Source: Escherichia phage pO2
Strand: one strand, 5' to 3'
Sequence record: OR228483.1
DNA: 39,037 nucleotides
The translations under genes were made by a program, and so were the position numbers. Under the pieces are notes generated by a model, which ran no database searches, was not told the DNA's origin, and was given only the letters and a program-made list of their open reading frames with translations. This document shows positions 120 through 39,037 of the stretch, in pieces; the stretch's first letter is position 1; every line of letters starts with the position of its first letter.

Positions 120-237
120 CTGTAGGTCTTTGACTGTAGGATGTGAGTGTCTTATGGTTGATACTGTAGGTTAGTCAGACTGTAGGTTGTAGGACTGTAG
201 GTTGTAGGACTGTAGGTTATAGGACCTATGGTTATAC
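120..237. repeat. Cluster of short CTGTAGG(T) direct repeats, including four tandem 15-bp units (GACTGTAGGTTGTAG-like) at 178..237; analogous in position to the short repeat arrays near T7 genome ends
   Basis: CTGTAGG at 120, 134, 164, 180, 195 and 210; 15-bp period read directly; lies beyond the last gene at the genome right end. Confidence 0.6.
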
Positions 238-455
238 AGATAGAGACTCAGAGACAGACCCATAGTCCCTACCTATCGTCCTGACCTCCAGCCATAGCCT
301 AGACCTATCGTTGACCTAACGTCTTGACCATCGGTACAACCTTATGATAGACTGGGGTAGGGCCTTTGGTCTGTACTTAAAGAGGGCCTATGGGGAGACT
401 TGAGGTTCTTGAACTGTGAGATGTGGTCTCAAACTTTTGGTCCAAAACTCATCGA

Positions 456-497
456 ATACTGTAGGTGGCAGCTACTGTAGGTCAAGGACCGTAGGTC
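456..497. repeat. Second small cluster of CTGTAGG / CCGTAGG repeats
   Basis: CTGTAGG at 459 and 475, CCGTAGG at 489. Confidence 0.45.
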
Positions 498-658
498 AGG
501 CGACACTAGGATAGACCAATAAGTAGGATGACCCTAGGTGAGCTTCTATTAAGGTGTTACCTAAAGTCCTTGACTACAGTAGCTAAGGTCAGTAGAGTGA
601 GTCTTTATCCACGTACTGACCTTAGGTCTTCCGCTCATGAATCGTTACCATGATTGCG

Positions 659-1114: not shown

Positions 1115-2884
1115 CTAGTGGAACGTAACGTAGGACCCTAGCCCCAGCTCGTCGTCCGTATCGTGAGTTACCCGGACCCCATTGTCCCAGAACTCAGTGT
1201 GGATGGACTCGAAGCCTTTCCGTGGGTTCTCCATCTGTTCCTCCAGCCACTCCTCAGTGACTTCACGTTCGCCTTTGTTGGCATCCTTCGCCATAGACTC
1301 AACGAAGAACTGTACACCGATAGCCAGCGCATCAAGTCGGTCATCGTGTGCCAATGCTCCACGTTCACGAGAGATACGTGTCATCTGGTAGAAGAGAGAG
1401 TAGATAGGATTACGAACACCATCCTTATCAGAGGCAGACTGGTAATCTTGGACGATAGCAGCAGCGTTAACGATAAGTCGGTGAGACCCCATGATAGGCT
1501 CCAGAACGTCACAGATGCGGAGTTCCTTCTGACCCTTACTCTTCACTTCAGTTACAGCAGCAGGATGAATACGGGAAGCTACAGGCTTGAATAGCTCAAG
1601 GTACATACCATCACCGAAGTTACCCTCAATGACGTATTCGTTGACCTTCCACTTACGACCAATCTTAGCCAAGGCTTCCAGCGTAGAGTCTTCATAGCCA
1701 CCTCGCATACCGCCAACTTCCATAGCGAAGATGTAGCCGTTTAGCTGGTACAGTACCGCATAACCAGTTTCATCCTTACCACGACCACTAGGGTCAATGA
1801 CTAGAATCTTCTGGGTGTACGAACTGAAGGCAGAACCTACAGTCTGATACGTGTGGTATGAGTCACCCATGAGTCCAACGTTAGGAACGTCCTCACGCTT
1901 GTTCTGAGGGTTAGGAAGCCATTGGTATACCATTGGGCTAGACGATGGGTCCAAGTCGGCTACGATAAGGTCACGGAGCTTCAGAGGGTACTTCTCAGCA
2001 TCGCTCAGGTTAGGGTTAAGCATGAACTGTAGAGCGAAGCCAGCTTTACCATAGGACAGCTCACGTTCCTTCAGGTCCGTATCATCAAATCGTACTTCAT
2101 CGGTCGGACGCCAGTAGAAGGACTCAGGGTCCTCTTCCAGCTCTGCCTGAAGCATCGGTGCCAGACGGTCGCCGTAAGACTGCCAGTCCTTCCTGTCGCG
2201 TGGATAACGAGCAGGCCAGATGGTAGTGGTGTATCCACGGCCTTCCAGCTCACGATACAAGGTCATCTCGTTCTGAGGAGTACCCAGATAGATGATTGTG
2301 CCTCCCGGCTTCAGGATAGCGTCGAACTCTTTCACAAGCTCTGACAGACGGTCTCGTGCAGCCTGAGTCGCTGAGTTGTTCGGAACCTCCACGTCATCGG
2401 CAATCAGGATGTCAGCACGACTACCAGTCAACTGACCAGTGATACCAACGGACTTAACCGAAGGTGAGTGGTCTGGCTTGGCTGGTCCAACGTCGAAGCT
2501 GATAACCGCATCTCGCTGCCCCTGCTTAGGTTTGAGTTCCTTAAGCTGAGGCATGAGGTCGATTATTCGCTTGATGAAGATGGAGTTAGCATCGGCTCGT
2601 TCCTTTGAGGCCGACACAATCATGAACTTCAAGTCCGGGTTATTCCATAACTTCCAGACCACGAAACCACAGGTCAGGAACGACTTTCCAATACCACGGA
2701 ATGCTTGAAGGATGAAGCGTCGATTATCTCCAGCCGCCAGCTTCTTACACATATCTATCTGGCAGCGTGTTGGAACAGGAAGGCTCAGAGCTTTCCATAG
2801 AACGAAGATGAAGAACACGAAGTCATCCCTCATCCTTTGGGTCATTTCTGCCTGTCTTTCAGCAGGTGTTTTCTTATTCGCCAC
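1115..2884 (-). CDS. gp19: Terminase large subunit (DNA maturase B)
   Basis: 589 aa; strong similarity to T7 gp19 ([31 protein letters not shown]); GTG start at 2884 preceded by AAGGAGG. Confidence 0.95.
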
Positions 2885-33224: not shown

Positions 33225-33404
33225 TTACGCTCCTACGAAATACTTCTCTCTGTTGACCAGAGAGTCTTTACCTTCAGCGTTACGGAAAGCACCCTTGACA
33301 CCGCCGCCACGCTTGGTCTTGTTCAGCTTGCGGCCCTTCGGAATGTAACCTTCAGTCTGCTGACGTTCACGGATTCGCTCGAAGTTGATAGTGTTCTGAT
33401 ACAT
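33225..33404 (-). CDS. Small basic protein, 59 aa (gp1.1-like position)
   Basis: Hand-found: ATG 33404 preceded by AGGAG; ...KGRKLNKTKRGGGVKGAF...; stop overlaps gp1.2 start. Confidence 0.5.
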   Translation of the reverse strand: MYQNTINFERIRERQQTEGYIPKGRKLNKTKRGGGVKGAFRNAEGKDSLVNREKYFVGA

Positions 33405-33438
33405 GGTGTAGCTCCTGATTGAATGAGTTAGGGTTAAT

Positions 33439-33476
33439 CATGAAGGCCACGACTTTGAGTCATGACCTTGAGTCTA
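33439..33476 (-). promoter_or_regulatory. Conserved hairpin element (candidate RNase III site, R1.1-like), copy 3 of 3
   Basis: CATGAAGGCCAC...TGACCTTGAGTCTA; minus-strand RNA forms a 12-bp stem AAGGUCAUGACU / AGUCGUGGCCUU with G-U wobbles. Confidence 0.5.
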
Positions 33477-33497
33477 ATCCTATAGTGATAGTTTAGG
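33475..33497 (-). promoter_or_regulatory. Phage RNA polymerase promoter (phi1.1-like; T7 replication-origin region equivalent)
   Basis: + strand CCTATAGTGATAGTTTAGGTTA. Confidence 0.65.
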
Positions 33498-33787: not shown

Positions 33788-33801
33788 AACTCTCTCTCCT
33801 G

Positions 33802-36483
33802 TTAAGCGAATGCAAAGTCTGAAGACAAGATGTCCTCGATATTCAGTTTACCTTTCTTCGGAAGCTCAGGCAACTTGTCGCGCTGACTCTCGTGAAGCTG
33901 GTATTCGAACTGCTCGTAGAAGTCAAGCAGCACATCGTTGTCGCGGTAGGTCTCTACCATCGTCTCACGGACACCACGGAACAGATACTCAGCGTCAGCC
34001 GGGATGGTCCCGAAGCTATCGTGAATCACTGCGAATGACATCACGCCATACTTGCGGTGCGTGTGGACTACAGTCTTGCGGAGGTGGCTACCATCTTGTG
34101 AGTGGACGAAGTTCGGGCTAATGCCTGACTCCTGCTTGTGCTTGTCCAGCTCTTTCTTCGTACCTCTGTTGACGGTAGGTTGAAGGTTGAATGACCCTAA
34201 GAACATCAGGTTCAGACGAGTGGTATCTTTCTTGCGGTATTCCTGCCAGACCGGGAAACCATCAGGTGTGACCCAGTGTACCGGAAGGCATGGCTTCAGG
34301 ATTTCGCCAGTCTTCTTGTCCTTCACTTCAGCAGCCAGCAGCTTGGCAGCGCCTTGAAGCCACTTCATCGCGTCAACCGCAGCAACTACTGTCACACTCA
34401 CAGCTTCCCAAATCATCTTTGCCATGAAGCGAGACGCTTGGCTTGGCTCGGTGAACATTGCTCCCTTACCGGAGTCAATCGCTGGCATCACGGTGTCTTC
34501 GAACACTTGGTCGGCGAACCCATACTCTTTCGACCCGTAGGCCAGAGTCATGACCGAGCGCTTAGTGACCGAGCGAGACATACCGAATTGCAGCCACTGA
34601 CGGGCCAGCTCTCGTGTCCCCAGCTTGATACGTTCGGTAATCTCACCAGTTTTCTTATCCTCGTGAGTGACCATCTCGTTGTCAGTACCGTTAATCAGCA
34701 GGACTTTAAGCTCCTCCTCAATGCGGTCAGACACAATGCGGTAGATGTCTTGCACCTTACCGGATGGCGTCAGGTTTACTGCATGTCCACCGATGTGGTC
34801 ACGAAGCATCGCGCTGAAGTGCTGAATACCAGAGCATGACCCATCGAACGCTATCGGCAGCGAGCAGGAGTAAGACAGGCCGTGGTGCATTACGCCAGCA
34901 TACTCGAAGCAGAACGCGAGGAAACAGAACGGAGAGTCTAACTTGCCCCACCACTCAATACTATCCATCGGTGCCTTAGCAGCAGCCATGATGTTTTCGT
35001 GGTTGTCTTCCACCCACTTGATGCGCTCATCGAAGGTGACTTTATCGACACCCGCACAGTTTGCACCGTGGACCTTCAGCCATTTGAAACCGTCAGCACC
35101 AATAGGCTTGCCGACTGCCAGAGTCAGGAGACCCTTCTGCATGTCGTTACCCTGAGGGTTGAACATCGGGACAGCGTAGACACGACCTCGCCAATCCATG
35201 TTGTACGGGAACCAGATGGCCTTGAACTGAGAGAACTTGTTTGCTTGGTTAACGATAAAGCTCAGTGATAATCTGCGTGACTGTCTGGCCTTCTCGCGGC
35301 GATAGATACCAGCAGCAGCCTTCTTCCATGCCTTGAGTTCCTCCTCGGTCTCACCAGCATAGTCCTCAGGCTTCAGCGGTTCCATCTGAGGGATGTCATC
35401 AATAGGCGTGTTGTTCAGCTTCTCGACCATGTTCACCACGTCCAGAACCTTCTTGTTAACTTTCCAAGGTGTATTCTGAATGATGTTCACAGCGTCATAG
35501 ACTTCAGGCATGTATACGTCTTCATAACGTGCTACCGCAGACTTAGACCCTAAGCGAATCAATGGTAACGGTCTGCGACCTTTGGCCCAGTACCCACCAC
35601 CTACGACACCAGTCCACGGCTTAGGTGGAACGACGCAAGGCTGGTAGACTGGAGCGATACCCGCAAGGCTGAATCCTCGTTGTGCCATCTTCTTGACCCA
35701 GAAGTCTGACAGGTGGACCATCTCTACGTCAGCCGCTGCATTACCAGCACCGTACCGCTTAAGCTCGACCAGTTGTGTTGACTGGATGACAATCTCGAGC
35801 ATCTTGATGCCAACGTGGACAGCCTCTGTAGGACTCCAAGTCCCCCATGCATCTTCCAGTTGGCCTTGCTCCAGCATGGACGCCTCGACCGCTTGCATGT
35901 AGGCTTTCTTGTAGGATGCCCCAGCTCGCTTGTTCAGGTTCTCAGCTATCGCCTTCTTGAAGTGCTCCTTCTCTTTGTCACGGATGCGACCGAAGCGGAT
36001 TTCGTCCTCAAGTGTGCGACCTATCGCGGAGGCCATCGGTGTAATCGGTATCCCTTCAGGCTTGACCAGCTTGGAGAGTATGACCTTCAGTATGATAACC
36101 GCAGCGGACTCACAGGAGATGCGCATAGAGCGGTCCTTTACGGCCTTCTCTTCAGTGCTCAACATGGTGAACGCTACGCTAGGACGCGAGGTTGACAGCT
36201 TCCCGTCTGGGCCTTCATGCCACTCCTTGACGGCTTGCGCAATCTTAGGGACCAGAGTCTGCATCAAAGGCTTGGCGACCTGATTGTCTGCCAGTTCCCC
36301 GCGCTCAGTCTGTCGCTCAAGGTTCTTGATGAAACGTCGCTCGCCTTCTGTATATGCCTCATGCTCAAGCTGAAGCTGTTTGACTGCAAGGTCTTGCCCG
36401 TAGTGGTCAGCCAGCAGGTTAAACGGCTCAATGGCGTTCGACACATCAGAGAAGTCGTGTTTGTCAATAGAGATGACGCTCAT
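33802..36483 (-). CDS. gp1: Single-subunit DNA-directed RNA polymerase
   Basis: 893 aa; long identical blocks to T7/T3 RNA polymerase (PCVVPPKPWTG, FPYNMDWRGRVYA, AFDGSCSGIQHFSAM, HDSFGT, C-terminal FAFA). Confidence 0.98.
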   Translation of the reverse strand: MSVISIDKHDFSDVSNAIEPFNLLADHYGQDLAVKQLQLEHEAYTEGERRFIKNLERQTERGELADNQVAKPLMQTLVPKIAQAVKEWHEGPDGKLSTSRPSVAFTMLSTEEKAVKDRSMRISCESAAVIILKVILSKLVKPEGIPITPMASAIGRTLEDEIRFGRIRDKEKEHFKKAIAENLNKRAGASYKKAYMQAVEASMLEQGQLEDAWGTWSPTEAVHVGIKMLEIVIQSTQLVELKRYGAGNAAADVEMVHLSDFWVKKMAQRGFSLAGIAPVYQPCVVPPKPWTGVVGGGYWAKGRRPLPLIRLGSKSAVARYEDVYMPEVYDAVNIIQNTPWKVNKKVLDVVNMVEKLNNTPIDDIPQMEPLKPEDYAGETEEELKAWKKAAAGIYRREKARQSRRLSLSFIVNQANKFSQFKAIWFPYNMDWRGRVYAVPMFNPQGNDMQKGLLTLAVGKPIGADGFKWLKVHGANCAGVDKVTFDERIKWVEDNHENIMAAAKAPMDSIEWWGKLDSPFCFLAFCFEYAGVMHHGLSYSCSLPIAFDGSCSGIQHFSAMLRDHIGGHAVNLTPSGKVQDIYRIVSDRIEEELKVLLINGTDNEMVTHEDKKTGEITERIKLGTRELARQWLQFGMSRSVTKRSVMTLAYGSKEYGFADQVFEDTVMPAIDSGKGAMFTEPSQASRFMAKMIWEAVSVTVVAAVDAMKWLQGAAKLLAAEVKDKKTGEILKPCLPVHWVTPDGFPVWQEYRKKDTTRLNLMFLGSFNLQPTVNRGTKKELDKHKQESGISPNFVHSQDGSHLRKTVVHTHRKYGVMSFAVIHDSFGTIPADAEYLFRGVRETMVETYRDNDVLLDFYEQFEYQLHESQRDKLPELPKKGKLNIEDILSSDFAFA

Positions 36484-36503
36484 ACTTAAAGTCCTTGTTA
36501 TTA

Positions 36504-36544
36504 GTCTTTCACTTAGAGTCTCTTTGGTCTTTCACTTGGAGTCT
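36504..36544 (-). repeat. Two 18-bp direct repeats (GTCTTTCACTT[A/G]GAGTCT) in the RNA polymerase gene leader
   Basis: Units at 36504..36521 and 36527..36544, 17/18 identical. Confidence 0.6.
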
Positions 36545-36552
36545 TAGACCTT

Positions 36553-36575
36553 GAGTCCTATAGTGATAGTTTAGT
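36553..36575 (-). promoter_or_regulatory. Phage RNA polymerase promoter directly upstream of the RNA polymerase gene
   Basis: + strand GTCCTATAGTGATAGTTTAGTC, full match to the promoter family. Confidence 0.6.
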
Positions 36576-36580
36576 CATAA

Positions 36581-36907
36581 TTACTTGCATATCAATGGGT
36601 TAGCGTGAAGATGACTGAAGTCACCATGAGTCGTGTGCTTGATGGTTGACCGTTGGTCTATCGCCTTCCAGCCTGAGACCAGAAGTTTACCATCGTCTGT
36701 GATTGGTCGTCCACCATACGCCAGACACATCAGCTCGGACTTATGGCCCTCGGCCCGGAGTCTTGCTTGCAGAACCCGGTCGCGCTCCTGCTGTTGACGT
36801 GCGGTGTGACTTGACGTTCCGTGACGATACCCTGTAGCCAGTAGGCTTAACATGTTCATTTCTGCGTCCATAGAGTGTACCAGATTAATCCCGTATGATT
36901 TGTTCAT
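36581..36907 (-). CDS. Hypothetical early protein, 108 aa
   Basis: ATG at 36907 overlaps upstream stop (TAATG); no motif recognised. Confidence 0.5.
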   Translation of the reverse strand: MNKSYGINLVHSMDAEMNMLSLLATGYRHGTSSHTARQQQERDRVLQARLRAEGHKSELMCLAYGGRPITDDGKLLVSGWKAIDQRSTIKHTTHGDFSHLHANPLICK

Positions 36908-37104
36908 TACAGTTTGCTCCCAAGTGTTGCTATATCCCAGACGTTCGCTAAATTGCGCAGGAATCGTCCGTTAGGTTGACGTACAGTCCAGCGGACCATA
37001 CGTACATAGTTGAATTTATAGACTTTACGCGCTTTGTTGATGTCTCTCATCAGCATGTAGGCGATAAGTCCATAGCCTATGGCTATCAATAGTTCGATAC
37101 TCAT
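36907..37104 (-). CDS. Small early membrane protein, 65 aa
   Basis: N-terminal hydrophobic segment LLIAIGYGLIAYMLM, then basic tail. Confidence 0.5.
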   Translation of the reverse strand: MSIELLIAIGYGLIAYMLMRDINKARKVYKFNYVRMVRWTVRQPNGRFLRNLANVWDIATLGSKL

Positions 37105-37190
37105 AGTGATTTCCGTTTAATACAGTCGTATAACCCATAGCCTATCATCCAGACAACTGGCGCTAGGCAGACCCAATATCCCAAACTCAT
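37101..37190 (-). CDS. Small hydrophobic peptide, 29 aa
   Basis: Hand-found: ATG 37190 preceded by GGAG; MSLGYWVCLAPVVWMIGYGLYDCIKRKSL; stop overlaps next start (ATGA). Confidence 0.3.
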   Translation of the reverse strand: MSLGYWVCLAPVVWMIGYGLYDCIKRKSL

Positions 37191-37264
37191 AGTTAACTCC
37201 TATCAATTTAAGTGATAATCTTCGAGGCCACCTATCAGTCGATGACCTCTCGTCTATCACTCTC

Positions 37265-37636
37265 CTACACTTCCACCGCTACGGTAGTCATCTTGGTCAC
37301 AGTAAGGCCACCAGCAAGCTCGACCGCATAGCGTATCGCCTCGTCTTTGGACCTGAAATCTTTTCCAGCAAGGTGGTAAATATCACCGTTTATTACTTTG
37401 GTCGGCTTGCGGCTGACTGCTATGGCGTTGCTAAGGGAAAGCTCACCCTTCAACCACTGAGAGTGCCAGCGGCATACGCTCTTAGGAGATACGTTGAAGT
37501 CACTGGCCACCTTCGCAAGCACAGAGTTAAGTCTAGAAGAGCTGCATTGAGGCTGGCGCACCAAGTCGTATGCCTTTGCTACTCGGATTTTAAACTCGAC
37601 CGTGTAGCTGTTGCGGGCTGTCGTAGTTGTGTTCAT
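37265..37636 (-). CDS. Early helix-turn-helix (HTH) DNA-binding protein, 123 aa; HTH resembles the IS3-family OrfA / transposase_8 type
   Basis: YTVEFKIRVAKAY...LNSVLAKVASDFNVSPKSVCRWHSQW pattern; AAGGA before ATG; sits where T7 has gene 0.7. Confidence 0.6.
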   Translation of the reverse strand: MNTTTTARNSYTVEFKIRVAKAYDLVRQPQCSSSRLNSVLAKVASDFNVSPKSVCRWHSQWLKGELSLSNAIAVSRKPTKVINGDIYHLAGKDFRSKDEAIRYAVELAGGLTVTKMTTVAVEV

Positions 37637-37666
37637 GAGTGTATCCTTTTGTTAATTAATTAAATA

Positions 37667-37715
37667 AGTGACAATCAGTCAGGCCCCTCAGTCAAAGGGC
37701 CTGTAGTCTATCACT
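37667..37715 (-). promoter_or_regulatory. Early-region conserved hairpin element (candidate RNase III site), copy 1 of 3
   Basis: AGTGACAATCAGTCAGG ... CCTGTAGTCTATCACT with inner perfect hairpin GGCCC-N10-GGGCC. Confidence 0.4.
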
Positions 37716-37860
37716 CAGCGTGTAAACTATCGTGTATGCGCTTGCGTCTCCTGTAGACCACTTTCAAGAGACGCATGGCCTCCTCGTGGTTTAACCGCCC
37801 GGTTTTGACCAAAATCCTGGCGTTGGTGACGTGGTGCTGGCAGAGACCATAAGTTACCAT
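37711..37860 (-). CDS. Small basic protein, 49 aa, translationally coupled to the Ocr-like gene
   Basis: Hand-found: ATG 37860 overlaps Ocr stop (TGATG); [49 protein letters not shown]. Confidence 0.3.
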   Translation of the reverse strand: MVTYGLCQHHVTNARILVKTGRLNHEEAMRLLKVVYRRRKRIHDSLHAE

Positions 37861-38363
37861 CACTCGCAATCCTCAGCAGCAGGGTCAAACACTACGTTAT
37901 CGTTGATGTCTTCCACCTTCAGGTGGCGACCTATCGCATAGAAGTCTTTTGCACATGCAGTAGCGACCTCAAGAGCTACAGCTTGCACAATTATTTCGCC
38001 TGTTTTAGCGTCAACTACCCAATATTCATCCTCTTCGTCTGCCTCTTCATCCTCAAACCAGACTACATCCAAGCTATTAGACACATCGTTATAAAGCGCC
38101 TCATAGATGCGAGCTTGTAGGATACGCGTTACGTCCTTGGTTTCAGGCATCAGCCCAGAGTCTTCGAACTCGTGGTCTATACCATCAGCAGCCATCACCG
38201 TGAAAATCTCGTGGTAATAGTTCGGGACCTGACCGTCTACGACCTCATGCAGCGCATCGCTGTAGTCATCGCCTTCAGCTATTTCGTCGTACTGAATACG
38301 CTCATTGAACATCTCAACGGTTGCAGCCAGCAGCTCATAGTATGCGTTAGCATTACGTTCCAT
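37860..38363 (-). CDS. ocr: Ocr-like anti-restriction (DNA mimic) protein with about 50-aa C-terminal extension
   Basis: Residues ~15-115 match T7 Ocr ([43 protein letters not shown], acidic tract); 167 aa versus 117 in T7; GAGGA before ATG. Confidence 0.85.
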
Positions 38364-38384
38364 AGTTATATCCTCTCAGTTGTT

Positions 38385-38434
38385 AGTGACTATCAGTCAG
38401 GCCGCTATGAGTTAACGACCTGTAGTTAATCACT
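38385..38434 (-). promoter_or_regulatory. Early-region conserved hairpin element, copy 2 of 3
   Basis: AGTGACTATCAGTCAGG ... CCTGTAGTTAATCACT. Confidence 0.4.
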
Positions 38435-38435
38435 C

Positions 38436-38690
38436 TCAGTTAGCGAAATAAGGAGCTGAGACGCCCGCTGTAGGACTCACGGCTATCTGCGAGTCTATCA
38501 GGTAGGTCTCGTTGTCTATACGCACAGTATCTACGCTGTAGTTGCTGAACGGCTTGCTTGAGACCTTGCGCACTACCACACGGTGACGCGCTCCTGTCAT
38601 CTCTTTAAGCTGAATCCACGCATAACCTTTAGTGTTCACGAATACGTCATTGCGATTAGTGATTGTGCTTAAGTGTTTCATAGTGTCCAT
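38436..38690 (-). CDS. Hypothetical first early protein, 84 aa, upstream of ocr
   Basis: Weak ribosome-binding site; no recognisable motif; position has no T7 counterpart. Confidence 0.45.
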   Translation of the reverse strand: MDTMKHLSTITNRNDVFVNTKGYAWIQLKEMTGARHRVVVRKVSSKPFSNYSVDTVRIDNETYLIDSQIAVSPTAGVSAPYFAN

Positions 38691-38700
38691 CCGTTAAGTT

Positions 38701-38757
38701 AGTGACTATCAGTCAGGGCCTTCAGATGTAGACTCAAAGACCCTGTAGTTAGTCGCT
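38701..38757 (-). promoter_or_regulatory. Early-region conserved hairpin element, copy 3 of 3
   Basis: AGTGACTATCAGTCAGGG ... CCCTGTAGTTAGTCGCT. Confidence 0.4.
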
Positions 38758-38873
38758 ATCGGCGCACATTAAGAGTTTATCCAGATTGTTAAAGAGCATT
38801 CCCTTCAGTCAGAGGACTTCAGGTAGACCATTTCAGTGTTGGTCATCACCGTTGTTTCGTGTTGATGTGGTAC

Positions 38874-38903
38874 ATACTACTTTAAGTCGGTACATCTTGT
38901 CAA
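38874..38903 (-). promoter_or_regulatory. Candidate host sigma70 early promoter (A-promoter analog)
   Basis: Minus-strand read TTGACA, 18-bp spacer, TAGTAT; upstream of all early genes. Confidence 0.3.
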
Positions 38904-39037
38904 CTACTTTCTGTCATCTGCCTGTTGTTCGTATGACTTATCAGGCTGTCTACTTAACCGGGATGACCCGGCGTCTTCACTATCCGGTTGTTGCCGTGTC
39001 GTGTTGACGGAAGCTATTAAGCCATAGTCTAGACCTG

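Follow-up and report, generated by a model that had tools for sequence, protein, structure and literature searches.

A predicted promoter for the phage RNA polymerase and a tightly conserved leader upstream of the polymerase gene of Escherichia phage pO2

Introduction

Phage T7 is the textbook case of a phage whose polymerase gene is transcribed by the host enzyme only, while K1F-type phages and several genera of Autographiviridae place a promoter for the phage polymerase before that gene. The locus considered here is the leader of the RNA polymerase gene (gene 1) of Escherichia phage pO2 (sequence record OR228483.1; the window is the whole stretch analyzed, 39,037 nucleotides). It raises two questions: whether the polymerase could transcribe its own gene from this position, and what role may correspond to the repeated sequences located between the promoter and the start codon.

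Gene 1 and its predicted promoter

The window is a Kayfunavirus (K1F-like, T7-family) genome with its genes on the minus strand. The features relevant to the first question are:

33802..36483, minus strand: gene 1, T7-type single-subunit RNA polymerase, 893 amino acids (ORF list)
36553..36575, minus strand: predicted K1F-type RNA polymerase promoter "phi1", positions -17 to +6 (consensus match)
36581..36907, minus strand: early ORF upstream of the promoter, 108 amino acids, phrog_7066 (ORF list and annotation)

The gene 1 product shares 63% identity with T7 RNA polymerase and 93–99% with Kayfunavirus polymerases, and its specificity loop resembles that of K1F, the sole difference being one R/K. 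The minus-strand reading of 36440..36640 gives ...ATGACTAAACTATCACTATAGGACTCAAGGTCTAAGACTCCAAGTGAAAGACCAAAGAGACTCTAAGTGAAAGACTAATAACAAGGACTTTAAGTATG. The 19-mer CTAAACTATCACTATAGGA, at 36556..36574(-), is an exact match to the 19-nt promoter consensus and is the same as three other copies. Considering all the matches with up to three mismatches, the promoter family has 11 members in the window, all of them on the minus (coding) strand, against a chance expectation of 0.01. With +1 assigned by analogy with T7 numbering, the predicted start of phi1 is G36558, and the ATG of gene 1 (36483) follows 75 nt further on. The coordinates and distances given in an earlier note on this DNA, which had described a full-consensus promoter about 75 nt upstream of gene 1, were thus correct. 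The promoter is intergenic and has the same orientation as gene 1, with its position -17 lying 5 nt past the stop codon of the upstream ORF 36581..36907(-). The initially transcribed sequence is GGACTC. In this genome, early and middle promoters, phi1 included, start with GGA and late ones with GGG; from its GGA start, phi1 is probably a class-II-type promoter of moderate strength.

Phi1 is present in every relative checked, being kept in 21 IMG/VR relatives and in phages K1F and CR44b. In GW1 and EcpYZU01 the promoter of gene 1 is AACCCTCACT(A/G)TAGG (ACCCT type); both phages have ACCCT-type promoters genome-wide together with a different polymerase specificity loop, i.e., the promoter type tracks the polymerase. 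The K1F specificity loop recognizes the K1F-family promoter consensus and is active in vivo (PMC3458549). The SFP21A-type phi1 contains TAAAGG, which is off the consensus of that genome at -2 and may weaken the promoter. A reading of the TAAAGG variant (loci L014–L019) as co-variation with polymerase specificity was discarded, as SFP21A, of the same group, has TATAGG at its other promoters.

Concerning transcription by the host enzyme, a sigma-70-like sequence (TTGACA-18-TAGTAT, 10/12) occurs upstream of the early genes at 38903..38874(-), as a consensus match only, with a count of such sites at chance level. The coding strand of 36300..39037, from the early region to gene 1, showed no terminator-like site, so host-polymerase transcripts would be expected to read through the promoter into gene 1. 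A possible sigma-70 promoter overlapping phi1 (TTGATA-16-TAAACT, 36595..36568) was rejected, since its 9/12 match is at chance level and most relatives have CTGATA.

A consensus promoter with no terminator before gene 1 implies polymerase-driven transcription of the polymerase gene, as the earlier note had suggested. The consensus, the strand, the intergenic site, the conservation and the co-variation of promoter type all point the same way, and on these sequence grounds phi1 is almost certainly functional as a promoter.

Comparison with other phages

As the earlier note had it, T7 has no promoter of this kind: the 470 nt before T7 gene 1 contain 0 matches to the T7 promoter core (up to three mismatches), and only the E. 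coli "C" promoter is annotated upstream of the gene. The implied unusualness of the pO2 arrangement did not survive comparison. In K1F (DQ111067, nt ~2477–2566) the arrangement is the same, between a small early ORF and gene 1, and in Citrobacter phage CR44b (GenBank HG818823, feature 1814..1836) a predicted promoter is already annotated at the phi1 position. Both phages have the same promoter core and leaders 96–97% identical to that of the window, including both repeats; the differences are point changes only, located at -14 (A/T), +20/+21 and +43 (C/T). The genus promoter consensus published for phage Sparklingdew (PMC13298934) is CTWAACTATCACTATAGG, and one of its copies lies in the gene just before that of the polymerase, at the 3′ end. 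The phi1 promoter is therefore already known. No comment on leader repeats or feedback was found in the accessible sources on these phages. The only potentially new point is the tightly conserved 75-nt leader with its periodic repeat organization.

Outside the genus, a mapped parallel in layout is LUZ100, where phi1 lies directly upstream of the RNA polymerase gene, its start was located by ONT-cappable-seq, and a positive-feedback loop was proposed in which read-through by the host polymerase is followed by self-amplification (PMC10134795). LUZ100 is like the window in having a phage-specific promoter immediately before its own polymerase gene. Otherwise, LUZ100 is a distant T7-like phage of Pseudomonas that shows temperate features, and its promoter is proposed to be gated by a MarR-like repressor, whereas the Kayfunavirus is lytic, is without such a regulator and has a promoter start that is predicted rather than mapped.

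Promoters of their own consensus also occur ~85–150 nt upstream of the polymerase gene in Pifdecavirus UNO-SLW1 (annotated), Ghunavirus NOI, Kelmasvirus RSB2 and vibriophage phiA318. Their leaders contain short CTTTAAGG, CTTAAAG or CTCTAAG repeats, but both promoter and leader sequences differ from those of Kayfunavirus. UNO-SLW1 has a strong GC hairpin after the promoter, there are two promoters in RSB2, and the promoter of phiA318 lies ahead of both the kinase and the polymerase. An engineered counterpart is the synthetic T7 "autogene", with the T7 polymerase gene under a T7 promoter, reportedly described by Dubendorff and Studier in 1991. It is like the window in that a polymerase gene is placed under its cognate promoter, which would make expression autocatalytic; the T7 autogene, however, is tolerated only with the help of lac repressor and lysozyme, while the pO2 arrangement is natural and belongs to a short lytic cycle.

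The leader and its repeats

The sequence between the predicted start and the gene 1 ATG contains the following features:

36484..36558, minus strand: gene 1 leader, 75 nt, 5′ UTR of the predicted phi1 transcripts, 43% A, with six RGAC units
36526..36543, minus strand: repeat 1, GACTCCAAGTGAAAGACC, at +16..+33 (sequence)
36503..36520, minus strand: repeat 2, GACTCTAAGTGAAAGACT, at +39..+56 (sequence)
36492..36496, minus strand: gene 1 Shine-Dalgarno sequence (AAGGA), 8 nt upstream of the ATG (read from sequence; invariant in all leader variants)

The two near-identical 18-bp repeats that the earlier note had placed between promoter and start codon are thus present. They are identical at 16 of 18 positions, can be extended to 21 nt at 90% identity, and have a period of 23 nt; further copies of the 18-nt repeat were not found elsewhere in the window. 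Repeat 1 corresponds to the apical part and 3′ arm of a predicted 5′ hairpin that is described below. Repeat 2 reads GACTTTAAGTG... in most relatives, its first 10 nt then being GACTTTAAGT, a sequence that also sits between the Shine-Dalgarno sequence and the ATG of gene 1. Both repeat copies contain an invariant AAGTGAAAGAC.

The repeats are part of a more extended organization. The trinucleotide GAC occurs in the leader at +2, +16, +30, +39, +53 and +66 (window 36557, 36543, 36529, 36520, 36506 and 36493), and the resulting RGAC density of 6 per 78 nt is the highest in the genome, reached by 14 of ~39,000 such segments. The leader is also rich in A (38–44% across variants versus 26% in the genome) and in A+T (62% versus 50%). 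Tandem Repeats Finder, run with a minimum score of 30, did not report the leader; the array is too short and degenerate for this program, and the period was therefore measured from the motif positions.

Several candidate functions of the leader were discarded. Two upstream mini-ORFs can be read in the K1F type. One begins at a GTG at +24 and has 8 codons, with a stop that overlaps the second GTG (as GTGA); the other begins at that second GTG, at +47, and has 3 codons followed by TAA TAA. They were rejected because they are not conserved: the first GTG is lost in GW1, the GTG of the SFP21A type is in frame with gene 1, and EcpYZU01 is without either. Readings of the repeats as Hfq (ARN)n, CsrA GGA, Rho rut or CRP sites were judged by eye and set aside, the spacing or composition being unfit.

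Conservation of the leader

In 17 K1F-type genomes, 5 of the 75 leader columns are variable (6.7%), as compared with 178 of the 300 codon-3 columns of gene 1 (59%; Fisher p = 4e-18). Leader variability is thus about ninefold lower than at neighboring synonymous sites, and the leader is conserved as tightly as the first and second (non-synonymous) codon positions of gene 1. At the codon-3 sites of gene 1 next to the leader, 18 of 50 are variable. The leader is under strong purifying selection. The low leader diversity could also partly reflect a recent recombinational sweep of a short segment; yet the flanking codon-3 sites are diverse.

In repeat 1 the only variable positions are +20 and +21, which are the NN of GACTNNAAG, and in repeat 2 the only one is +43 (C/T); variation in either copy is limited to the NN positions. 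All five leader variants contain six RGAC units, with spacings mostly of 12–16 nt (~14 nt) and one 9-nt gap in the K1F, window and GW1 leader types. The exact 18-nt pair is restricted to the K1F clade; GW1 and L021 have a degenerate version of it (repeat 1 being GACTCCAGTTTAAAGACC), and in the SFP21A type and EcpYZU01 it is replaced by other arrangements of the ~14-nt RGAC unit. Comparison of the gene 1 leaders of related phages, which the earlier note had proposed, thus upheld the promoter in all those checked and the repeats in the K1F clade only. As the exact repeat is absent outside this clade, the repeat itself is not essential to a genus-wide function.

The leader region matches 221 GenBank phage records, close to the count of records whose polymerase is at least 80% identical. 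When IMG/VR was scanned with the 16-mer AAGGACTTTAAGTATG, 84 loci came up, nearly all of them chance matches in unrelated contigs, and no new Kayfunavirus beyond the 21 already found.

RNA structure and relation to RNase III-type hairpins

Folding of the predicted transcripts gave one further feature:

36520..36555, minus strand: predicted weak 5′ hairpin of phi1 transcripts, +4..+39, CUC/AA/GGUCU...AGACC/AAA/GAG (minimum free energy and partition-function folds)

This hairpin is a degenerate paralogue of the RNase III-type hairpins of the genome. Its 5′ half, GACTCAAGGTC, is common to the canonical hairpins at 33474, 26086 and 3403, while the canonical 3′ half, GTGGCCTTTATGATTA, is absent from the leader and has AGACCAAAGAG in its place. 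The canonical two-stem form, with 5′ ..GACTCAAGGTCAT.., loop and 3′ ..GTGGCCTT(T/C)ATGATTA.., is represented in the leader by the 5′ half only. The position is that of the R1-type hairpin of T7, 285P, a T3-like Leclercia phage and KP32. In T7, the R1 site and the minor "C" promoter, between genes 0.7 and 1, occupy the same genomic position, with a related AGGTC-containing hairpin motif. T7, T3-like and Berlin-like phages and KP32 have no phage promoter there and carry instead a canonical RNase III-type ...AGGTCAT...GTGGCCT... hairpin; at the same position, Kayfunavirus has the promoter and a degenerate hairpin only.

A related layout occurs within the window in the phi1.1 promoter and R1.1 hairpin cassette (33478..33400(-), corresponding to T7 phi1.1A/R1.1), which shares the order promoter, GGA..GACTCAAGGTC.., hairpin. 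Over its first ~33 nt, the gene 1 leader aligns with this cassette. The two differ in that the phi1.1 hairpin has a perfect 12-bp stem and a conserved GTGGCCTT(C/T)ATGATTA 3′ arm, whereas the gene 1 leader has an interrupted 5+3 bp stem followed by the duplicated unit.

The folding energy of the leader was no better than that of shuffled sequences (z = +0.46 and -0.50), no Rfam match to the leader was obtained even at E <= 1, and the proposed pairs gave 0 compensatory changes in 18 sequences (model 99% compatible) because they do not vary. These three results speak against a stable RNA structure or riboswitch in the leader. In read-through RNA, AGUGA of repeat 2 is predicted to pair with UCACU of the promoter (probability 0.9–0.99). 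For the pairing of promoter positions -8..+2 with +41..+50, the predicted probability is 0.5–0.99 in the window, ~0.03–0.99 in GW1 and ~0.6 in SFP21A; this pairing is not predicted in EcpYZU01. The predicted accessibility of the Shine-Dalgarno sequence differs modestly between phi1 and read-through transcripts and was put aside as not decisive.

Interpretation of the locus

Considering all these data, the element is best explained as the phi1 promoter followed by a leader functional at the RNA level, with feedback of the polymerase on its own gene, a reading to which we assign a probability of roughly 0.65. The analysis shows a conserved sequence, a promoter type that varies together with the polymerase and a leader under selective constraint, whereas promoter activity in vivo, feedback and the leader mechanism are inferred, as follows. 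Early in infection, the host polymerase would read through from the early promoters into gene 1. Later, the phage polymerase would also start at G36558 and transcribe its own gene, which would constitute a positive-feedback "autogene". The 75-nt leader would be no mere spacer; it appears to be built from about six degenerate ~14-nt units (RGACY-NN-AAGT-...), which are similar in sequence to the RNase III-type hairpins, in their 5′ arm, and to the stretch between ribosome-binding site and ATG. The 18-nt pair would be a 23-nt tandem duplication of RGAC units that became fixed in the K1F clade. Most likely, the leader sets the translation efficiency of the polymerase mRNA and/or its stability and processing. 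It may act as an A-rich, weakly structured region with Shine-Dalgarno-like AAGG/UAAG cores. Phi1 transcripts would carry the small 5′ hairpin, and read-through transcripts alone might form a longer one between promoter and repeat 2. As neither a stable or covarying RNA structure nor a cognate binding protein was found, we infer, rather than observe, this role in translation, processing or stability.

Other explanations differ in what they take the leader to be. The promoter, the short hairpin and repeat 2 might together be the Kayfunavirus equivalent of the T7 R1 RNase III site. In read-through RNA, the promoter core (UCACUAUAGGACUC) would pair with GAGACUCUAAGUGA of repeat 2, enclosing the GGUCU/AGACC hairpin; an RNase III cut would release gene 1 mRNA, phi1-started transcripts without the 5′ arm would escape, and the repeats would exist because they provide the 3′ arm. 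The position matches that of the R1 hairpin of T7, T3-like and Berlin-like phages and KP32, the 5′ half is identical to those of the three canonical hairpins, and the pairing is predicted in the window, GW1 and SFP21A. In the SFP21A type, moreover, positions +45..+55 form a perfect inverted complement, 11 nt long, to the promoter core, and the promoter has a -2 T>A change, away from the consensus of its genome, through which the pairing becomes perfect. The five variable leader positions lie in predicted loops or keep a G-U pair. We nevertheless regard this explanation as unlikely. The canonical 3′ arm is missing, the helix is both short and discontinuous (5+2+3+5 bp), with an energy no better than shuffles, compensatory changes amount to 0, the -10/-9 changes of GW1 and L021 break a pair without compensation, and EcpYZU01 is without this pairing. 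It seems very improbable that the promoter and the A/T-rich, GTC-dense leader are mainly a replication origin or priming region, or an aid to polymerase-driven genome entry. In T7 origins, an AT-rich stretch that holds a primase site comes after a phage promoter. The A+T excess of the leader would suit such a role, as would the GTC present on the complementary strand at all six units, with a canonical T7 primase site (TGGTC) at 36525..36529(+), and the phi1.1 region, at the position of the T7 primary origin, has one promoter only and no AT-rich stretch. The case is, however, purely analogical: a single GTC site fits the T7 primase pentamer, the T7 origin has ~80% A+T, beside which the richness of the leader is modest, and the constraint spans the ribosome-binding region, which is a better fit to an mRNA role.

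The repeats could, on the other hand, be a functionless remnant of a local tandem duplication, with only the promoter and the Shine-Dalgarno sequence of importance. The exact pair is indeed clade-specific, with other clades arranged differently, and folding, Rfam and Tandem Repeats Finder provided no structure or motif match. This is hard to reconcile with a leader variability nine times below that of neighboring synonymous sites, with the invariance of both copies outside the NN positions, and with the six-unit periodicity retained in all the diverged leaders, and we give it hardly any credence. By analogy with the repressor sites that flank the polymerase-gene promoter in temperate T7-like phages, the direct repeats might instead be a DNA (or RNA) operator, at which a phage or host protein would throttle phi1 or the translation of gene 1 and so limit runaway feedback. 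Two near-identical copies varying only at the NN of GACTNNAAGTGAAAGAC are typical of a bipartite recognition motif, the purifying selection is strong, and a polymerase gene under positive feedback needs a brake, MarR-type control having been proposed for LUZ100-like phages (PMC10134795). Besides, the early ORF 37265..37636 has a weak helix-turn-helix match; its score, however, is below the Pfam cutoff, and it is not annotated in K1F, which has the same repeats. A cognate binding protein was not found among the ORFs of the window, the genome has no further copy of the motif, spacings of 23 bp and ~14 nt do not correspond to helical repeats, the SFP21A-type and EcpYZU01 leaders do not conserve the pair, and these phages are strictly lytic according to the abstract of PMC13298934. 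An operator is thus quite improbable. The earlier idea of the repeats as a discrete regulatory site therefore holds in part: the whole leader is strongly constrained, but the pair is confined to the K1F clade, and neither a binding protein nor a significant RNA structure was found.

Significance

A promoter for the phage polymerase before the polymerase gene implies self-amplifying polymerase synthesis and hence some means of limiting it. A further possibility is that the leader, with its six RGAC units and duplicated GACTNNAAGTGAAAGAC, would be a dedicated control element taming a natural autogene, either as a translational operator (to which the polymerase or an early protein would bind) or as a switch through which read-through mRNAs made by the host and phi1 mRNAs made by the phage would differ in processing and translation. 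This proposal is put forward very tentatively and is rather unlikely; if true, control by the leader would be a feedback-limiting mechanism undescribed for T7-group phages. More generally, the arrangement bears on the developmental timing of these phages and on the use of K1F polymerase/promoter pairs in synthetic biology.

Genome layout and the promoter before gene 1

Compared by BLAST with a phage collection, the region 33800..37300 was 93–96% identical to Kayfunavirus genomes. The window is, judged by its sequence, a Kayfunavirus (K1F-like, Studiervirinae) whose genes lie on its minus strand. Its polymerase shares 63% identity with that of T7 and 93–99% with Kayfunavirus enzymes. Tandem ACTGTAGGTTGTAGG arrays (4 copies, 91% matches) at 163..225 and many CCTACAGT motifs across 120..560 form a pattern usual at the genome ends of the T7 group, and the window is apparently a complete genome in reverse orientation whose end region lies inside it. 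The features considered were:

33802..36483, minus strand, T7-type RNA polymerase gene (gene 1), 893-aa ORF
36556..36574, minus strand, phi1 promoter 19-mer CTAAACTATCACTATAGGA, identical in three further copies
36543..36526 and 36520..36503, minus strand, repeat pair of two 18-mers, 16/18 identical
36581..36907, minus strand, 108-aa ORF upstream of phi1, phrog_7066
38903..38874, minus strand, best sigma-70-like site of the early region, TTGACA-18-TAGTAT, 10/12
Minus-strand order: ...TAA TTATGA CTAAACTATCACTATAGGA CTCAAGGTCTAA GACTCCAAGTGAAAGACC AAAGA GACTCTAAGTGAAAGACT AATAACAAGGACTTTAAGT ATG

The earlier note's promoter and repeats in the gene 1 leader are thus all present at these positions. 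Its description of a full-consensus promoter about 75 nt before gene 1 is borne out by the exact 19-mer, whose predicted +1, assigned by T7 numbering, is G36558, 75 nt upstream of the ATG at 36483. The promoter family has 11 copies in the window, all on the coding strand (chance expectation, 0.01). The promoter phi1 is intergenic, beginning 5 nt past the stop codon of the 108-aa ORF, and a search for a terminator between phi1 and gene 1 found none. Its initially transcribed sequence is GGA..., which suggests class-II-type strength, since this start matches the other early/middle promoters of the genome and not the late ones (GGG). A sigma-70-like site overlapping phi1 (TTGATA-16-TAAACT, 36595..36568, minus strand), which recalls the position of the T7 minor 'C' promoter, was rejected, as its 9/12 score is no better than chance and CTGATA stands there in most relatives.

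Concerning the early region, the site at 38903..38874 is probably a host-polymerase early promoter, which would supply read-through into gene 1. The 123-aa ORF at 37265..37636 (minus strand) matched no PHROG, and its Pfam hit to HTH_23 is weak and below threshold (E = 0.0036); it could encode a DNA-binding protein, and the K1F early region annotation holds no ORF of that size. The 108-aa ORF is unannotated in the original K1F record DQ111067, where the stretch 2208..2566 is empty, and the RefSeq copy gives gp0.38 at its place.

Conservation of phi1 and polymerase specificity

The promoter phi1 occurs at the same position in 21 IMG/VR relatives, K1F and CR44b, whose GenBank record carries a 'predicted promoter' exactly there. 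GenBank holds the 171-nt region in 221 phage records, roughly as many as have a polymerase at least 80% identical. In Cronobacter phage GW1 and Enterobacter phage EcpYZU01, promoters are AACCCTCACT(A/G)TAGG genome-wide, the one before gene 1 is of the same ACCCT type, and the specificity loop of the polymerase reads TFRLQ...G[GN]SKE versus SFNLQ...G[TS]KKE. That the K1F specificity loop drives the K1F-family promoter consensus has been shown experimentally (PMC3458549). So, the reality of the phi1 promoter is well supported by conservation, specificity co-variation, experimental loop recognition and genomic context, and we infer that it would be active in vivo.

In a Kayfunavirus subgroup (Shigella phage SFP21A, L024 19905..20001, and L014-L019), the gene 1 promoter is CACTAAAGG, with T>A at -2, and eight consensus promoters elsewhere in SFP21A are CACTATAGG.

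Repeats and constraint in the leader

The repeat pair extends to 21 nt with 90% identity and a 23-nt period, and neither 18-mer recurs elsewhere in the window. Among six leader variants compared (window, K1F, GW1, L021, SFP21A type and EcpYZU01), only those of the K1F clade have the exact 18-nt pair; copy 1 is degenerate in GW1 and L021, and the leader middle differs in the SFP21A type and EcpYZU01. All five variants measured (the same set apart from L021) keep six RGAC motifs, from the GGAC at +1 to the one in the AAGGAC Shine-Dalgarno sequence. Their spacing is mostly 12–16 nt, and the K1F, window and GW1 types each have a single gap of 9 nt. The window leader is the densest RGAC site of the entire genome, and leaders contain 38–44% A versus 26% genome-wide. 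The best description of the 18-nt pair is that a 23-nt stretch, made up of a long and a short unit, is duplicated in tandem (AGACTCCAAGTGAAAGACCAAAG / AGACTCTAAGTGAAAGACTAATA). The 10 nt separating the Shine-Dalgarno sequence from the ATG, GACTTTAAGT, also open repeat 2 in most relatives.

Table. Variability in 17 K1F-type genomes (gene 1 86–100% identical)
Leader (75 nt): 5/75 columns variable, pi 0.014
Gene 1 codon-3 sites: 178/300 columns variable, pi 0.16
Gene 1 codon-1/2 sites: 39/600 columns variable, pi 0.012
50 codon-3 sites closest to the leader: 18/50 variable

The leader is far less variable than codon-3 sites (Fisher p = 4e-18), which indicates constraint equal to that on non-synonymous positions. 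Only five leader positions vary: +7/+8, +20/+21 and +43. Of these, +20, +21 and +43 correspond to the NN of GACTNNAAG in the two repeats. Such constraint, with variation confined to few positions, argues against the repeats being junk. The earlier note's idea of a regulatory site in the repeats is only partly supported: the repeats are, on this comparative evidence, a clade-specific duplication inside a genuinely constrained leader.

Possible roles of the leader RNA

Over its first ~33 nt (GGACTCAAGGTCTAAGACTCCAAGTGAAAGACC) the leader aligns with the phi1.1 promoter-hairpin cassette of the same genome, and GACTCAAGGTC is common to the leader start and three hairpins of canonical RNase III type (33474, 26086 and 3403). 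Their conserved 3' arm, GTGGCCTTTATGATTA, is absent from the gene 1 leader, so the leader hairpin is reduced to an interrupted 5+3 bp. The 10-mer GACTCAAGGT is strongly over-represented genome-wide (26 matches at ≤1 mismatch versus 3.6 expected); three sense-strand copies (33474, 26086 and 3403, minus strand) head near-identical hairpins, TAGACTCAAGGTCAT..GTGGCCTT(T/C)ATG(A/G)TTA, which look like the T7-type RNase III sites R1.1, R4.7 and R18.5.

A suggestive possibility is a processing hairpin like R1, the T7-group RNase III site, that only host-made transcripts could form. Folding of read-through RNA predicts a helix around the small hairpin, formed by UCACU...GG of the promoter core and AGUGA...CU of repeat 2, with probabilities of 0.5–0.99 in the window, ~0.03–0.99 in GW1 and ~0.6 in SFP21A. 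The SFP21A type carries at +45..+55 an 11-nt stretch (CTTTAGTGATA) perfectly complementary, in inverted order, to the promoter core, and its -2 T>A change perfects the pairing while departing from the promoter consensus of its own genome. However, pairs counted on 18 sequences were 99% compatible with zero compensatory changes, the promoter changes of GW1 and L021 are uncompensated, and EcpYZU01 lacks the pairing. This RNase III-type hairpin, a protein operator and an origin-like function are rival readings of the leader.

The leader is not more stable than shuffled sequence (z = +0.46; 261-nt context, z = -0.50), an Rfam search of it gave zero matches, and Shine-Dalgarno accessibility is predicted to differ only modestly between phi1 and read-through transcripts. 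Because RNA folding gives nothing decisive, we commit only to a leader acting at the RNA level, on how the polymerase message is translated and/or stabilised and processed; this role would rest on its A-rich, weakly structured nature, the repeated Shine-Dalgarno-like AAGG/UAAG cores and the small 5' hairpin.

Own-type promoters before polymerase genes

As the earlier note said, T7 lacks a phage promoter ahead of gene 1: the T7 promoter core is unmatched there at ≤3 mismatches, and the E. coli 'C' promoter is the sole one annotated. T7, Berlinvirus 285P, a T3-like Teetrevirus and Przondovirus KP32 have instead an R1-type hairpin (...AGGTCAT...GTGGCCT...), and an ICP3-like vibriophage shows no clear copy at that site.

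The implied unusualness of phi1 is not supported, since own-type promoters precede polymerase genes in several genera. Besides CR44b, they are found in UNO-SLW1 (Pifdecavirus, annotated as phage-specific, L029 3814), Pseudomonas phage NOI (Ghunavirus, L117 4368) and Ralstonia phage RSB2 (Kelmasvirus, L118 6877 and ~6925). The leaders of NOI, RSB2 and UNO-SLW1 hold short CTTAAAG / CTCTAAG / CTTTAAGG repeats, suggesting a family-wide leader motif across Autographiviridae genera. A 2026 genome paper (PMC13298934) gives the genus consensus as CTWAACTATCACTATAGG and places one copy in the 3' end of the gene just ahead of the polymerase gene. In phiA318 a promoter is reported to lie upstream of the kinase and polymerase genes and autoregulation was suggested (PMC4099482). 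For LUZ100, ONT-cappable-seq mapped a promoter immediately before the polymerase gene, and positive feedback was proposed (PMC10134795). The interpretation of phi1 as a promoter is well supported but already known for Kayfunavirus and several other Autographiviridae, a family in which an own-type promoter before the polymerase gene is a common alternative.
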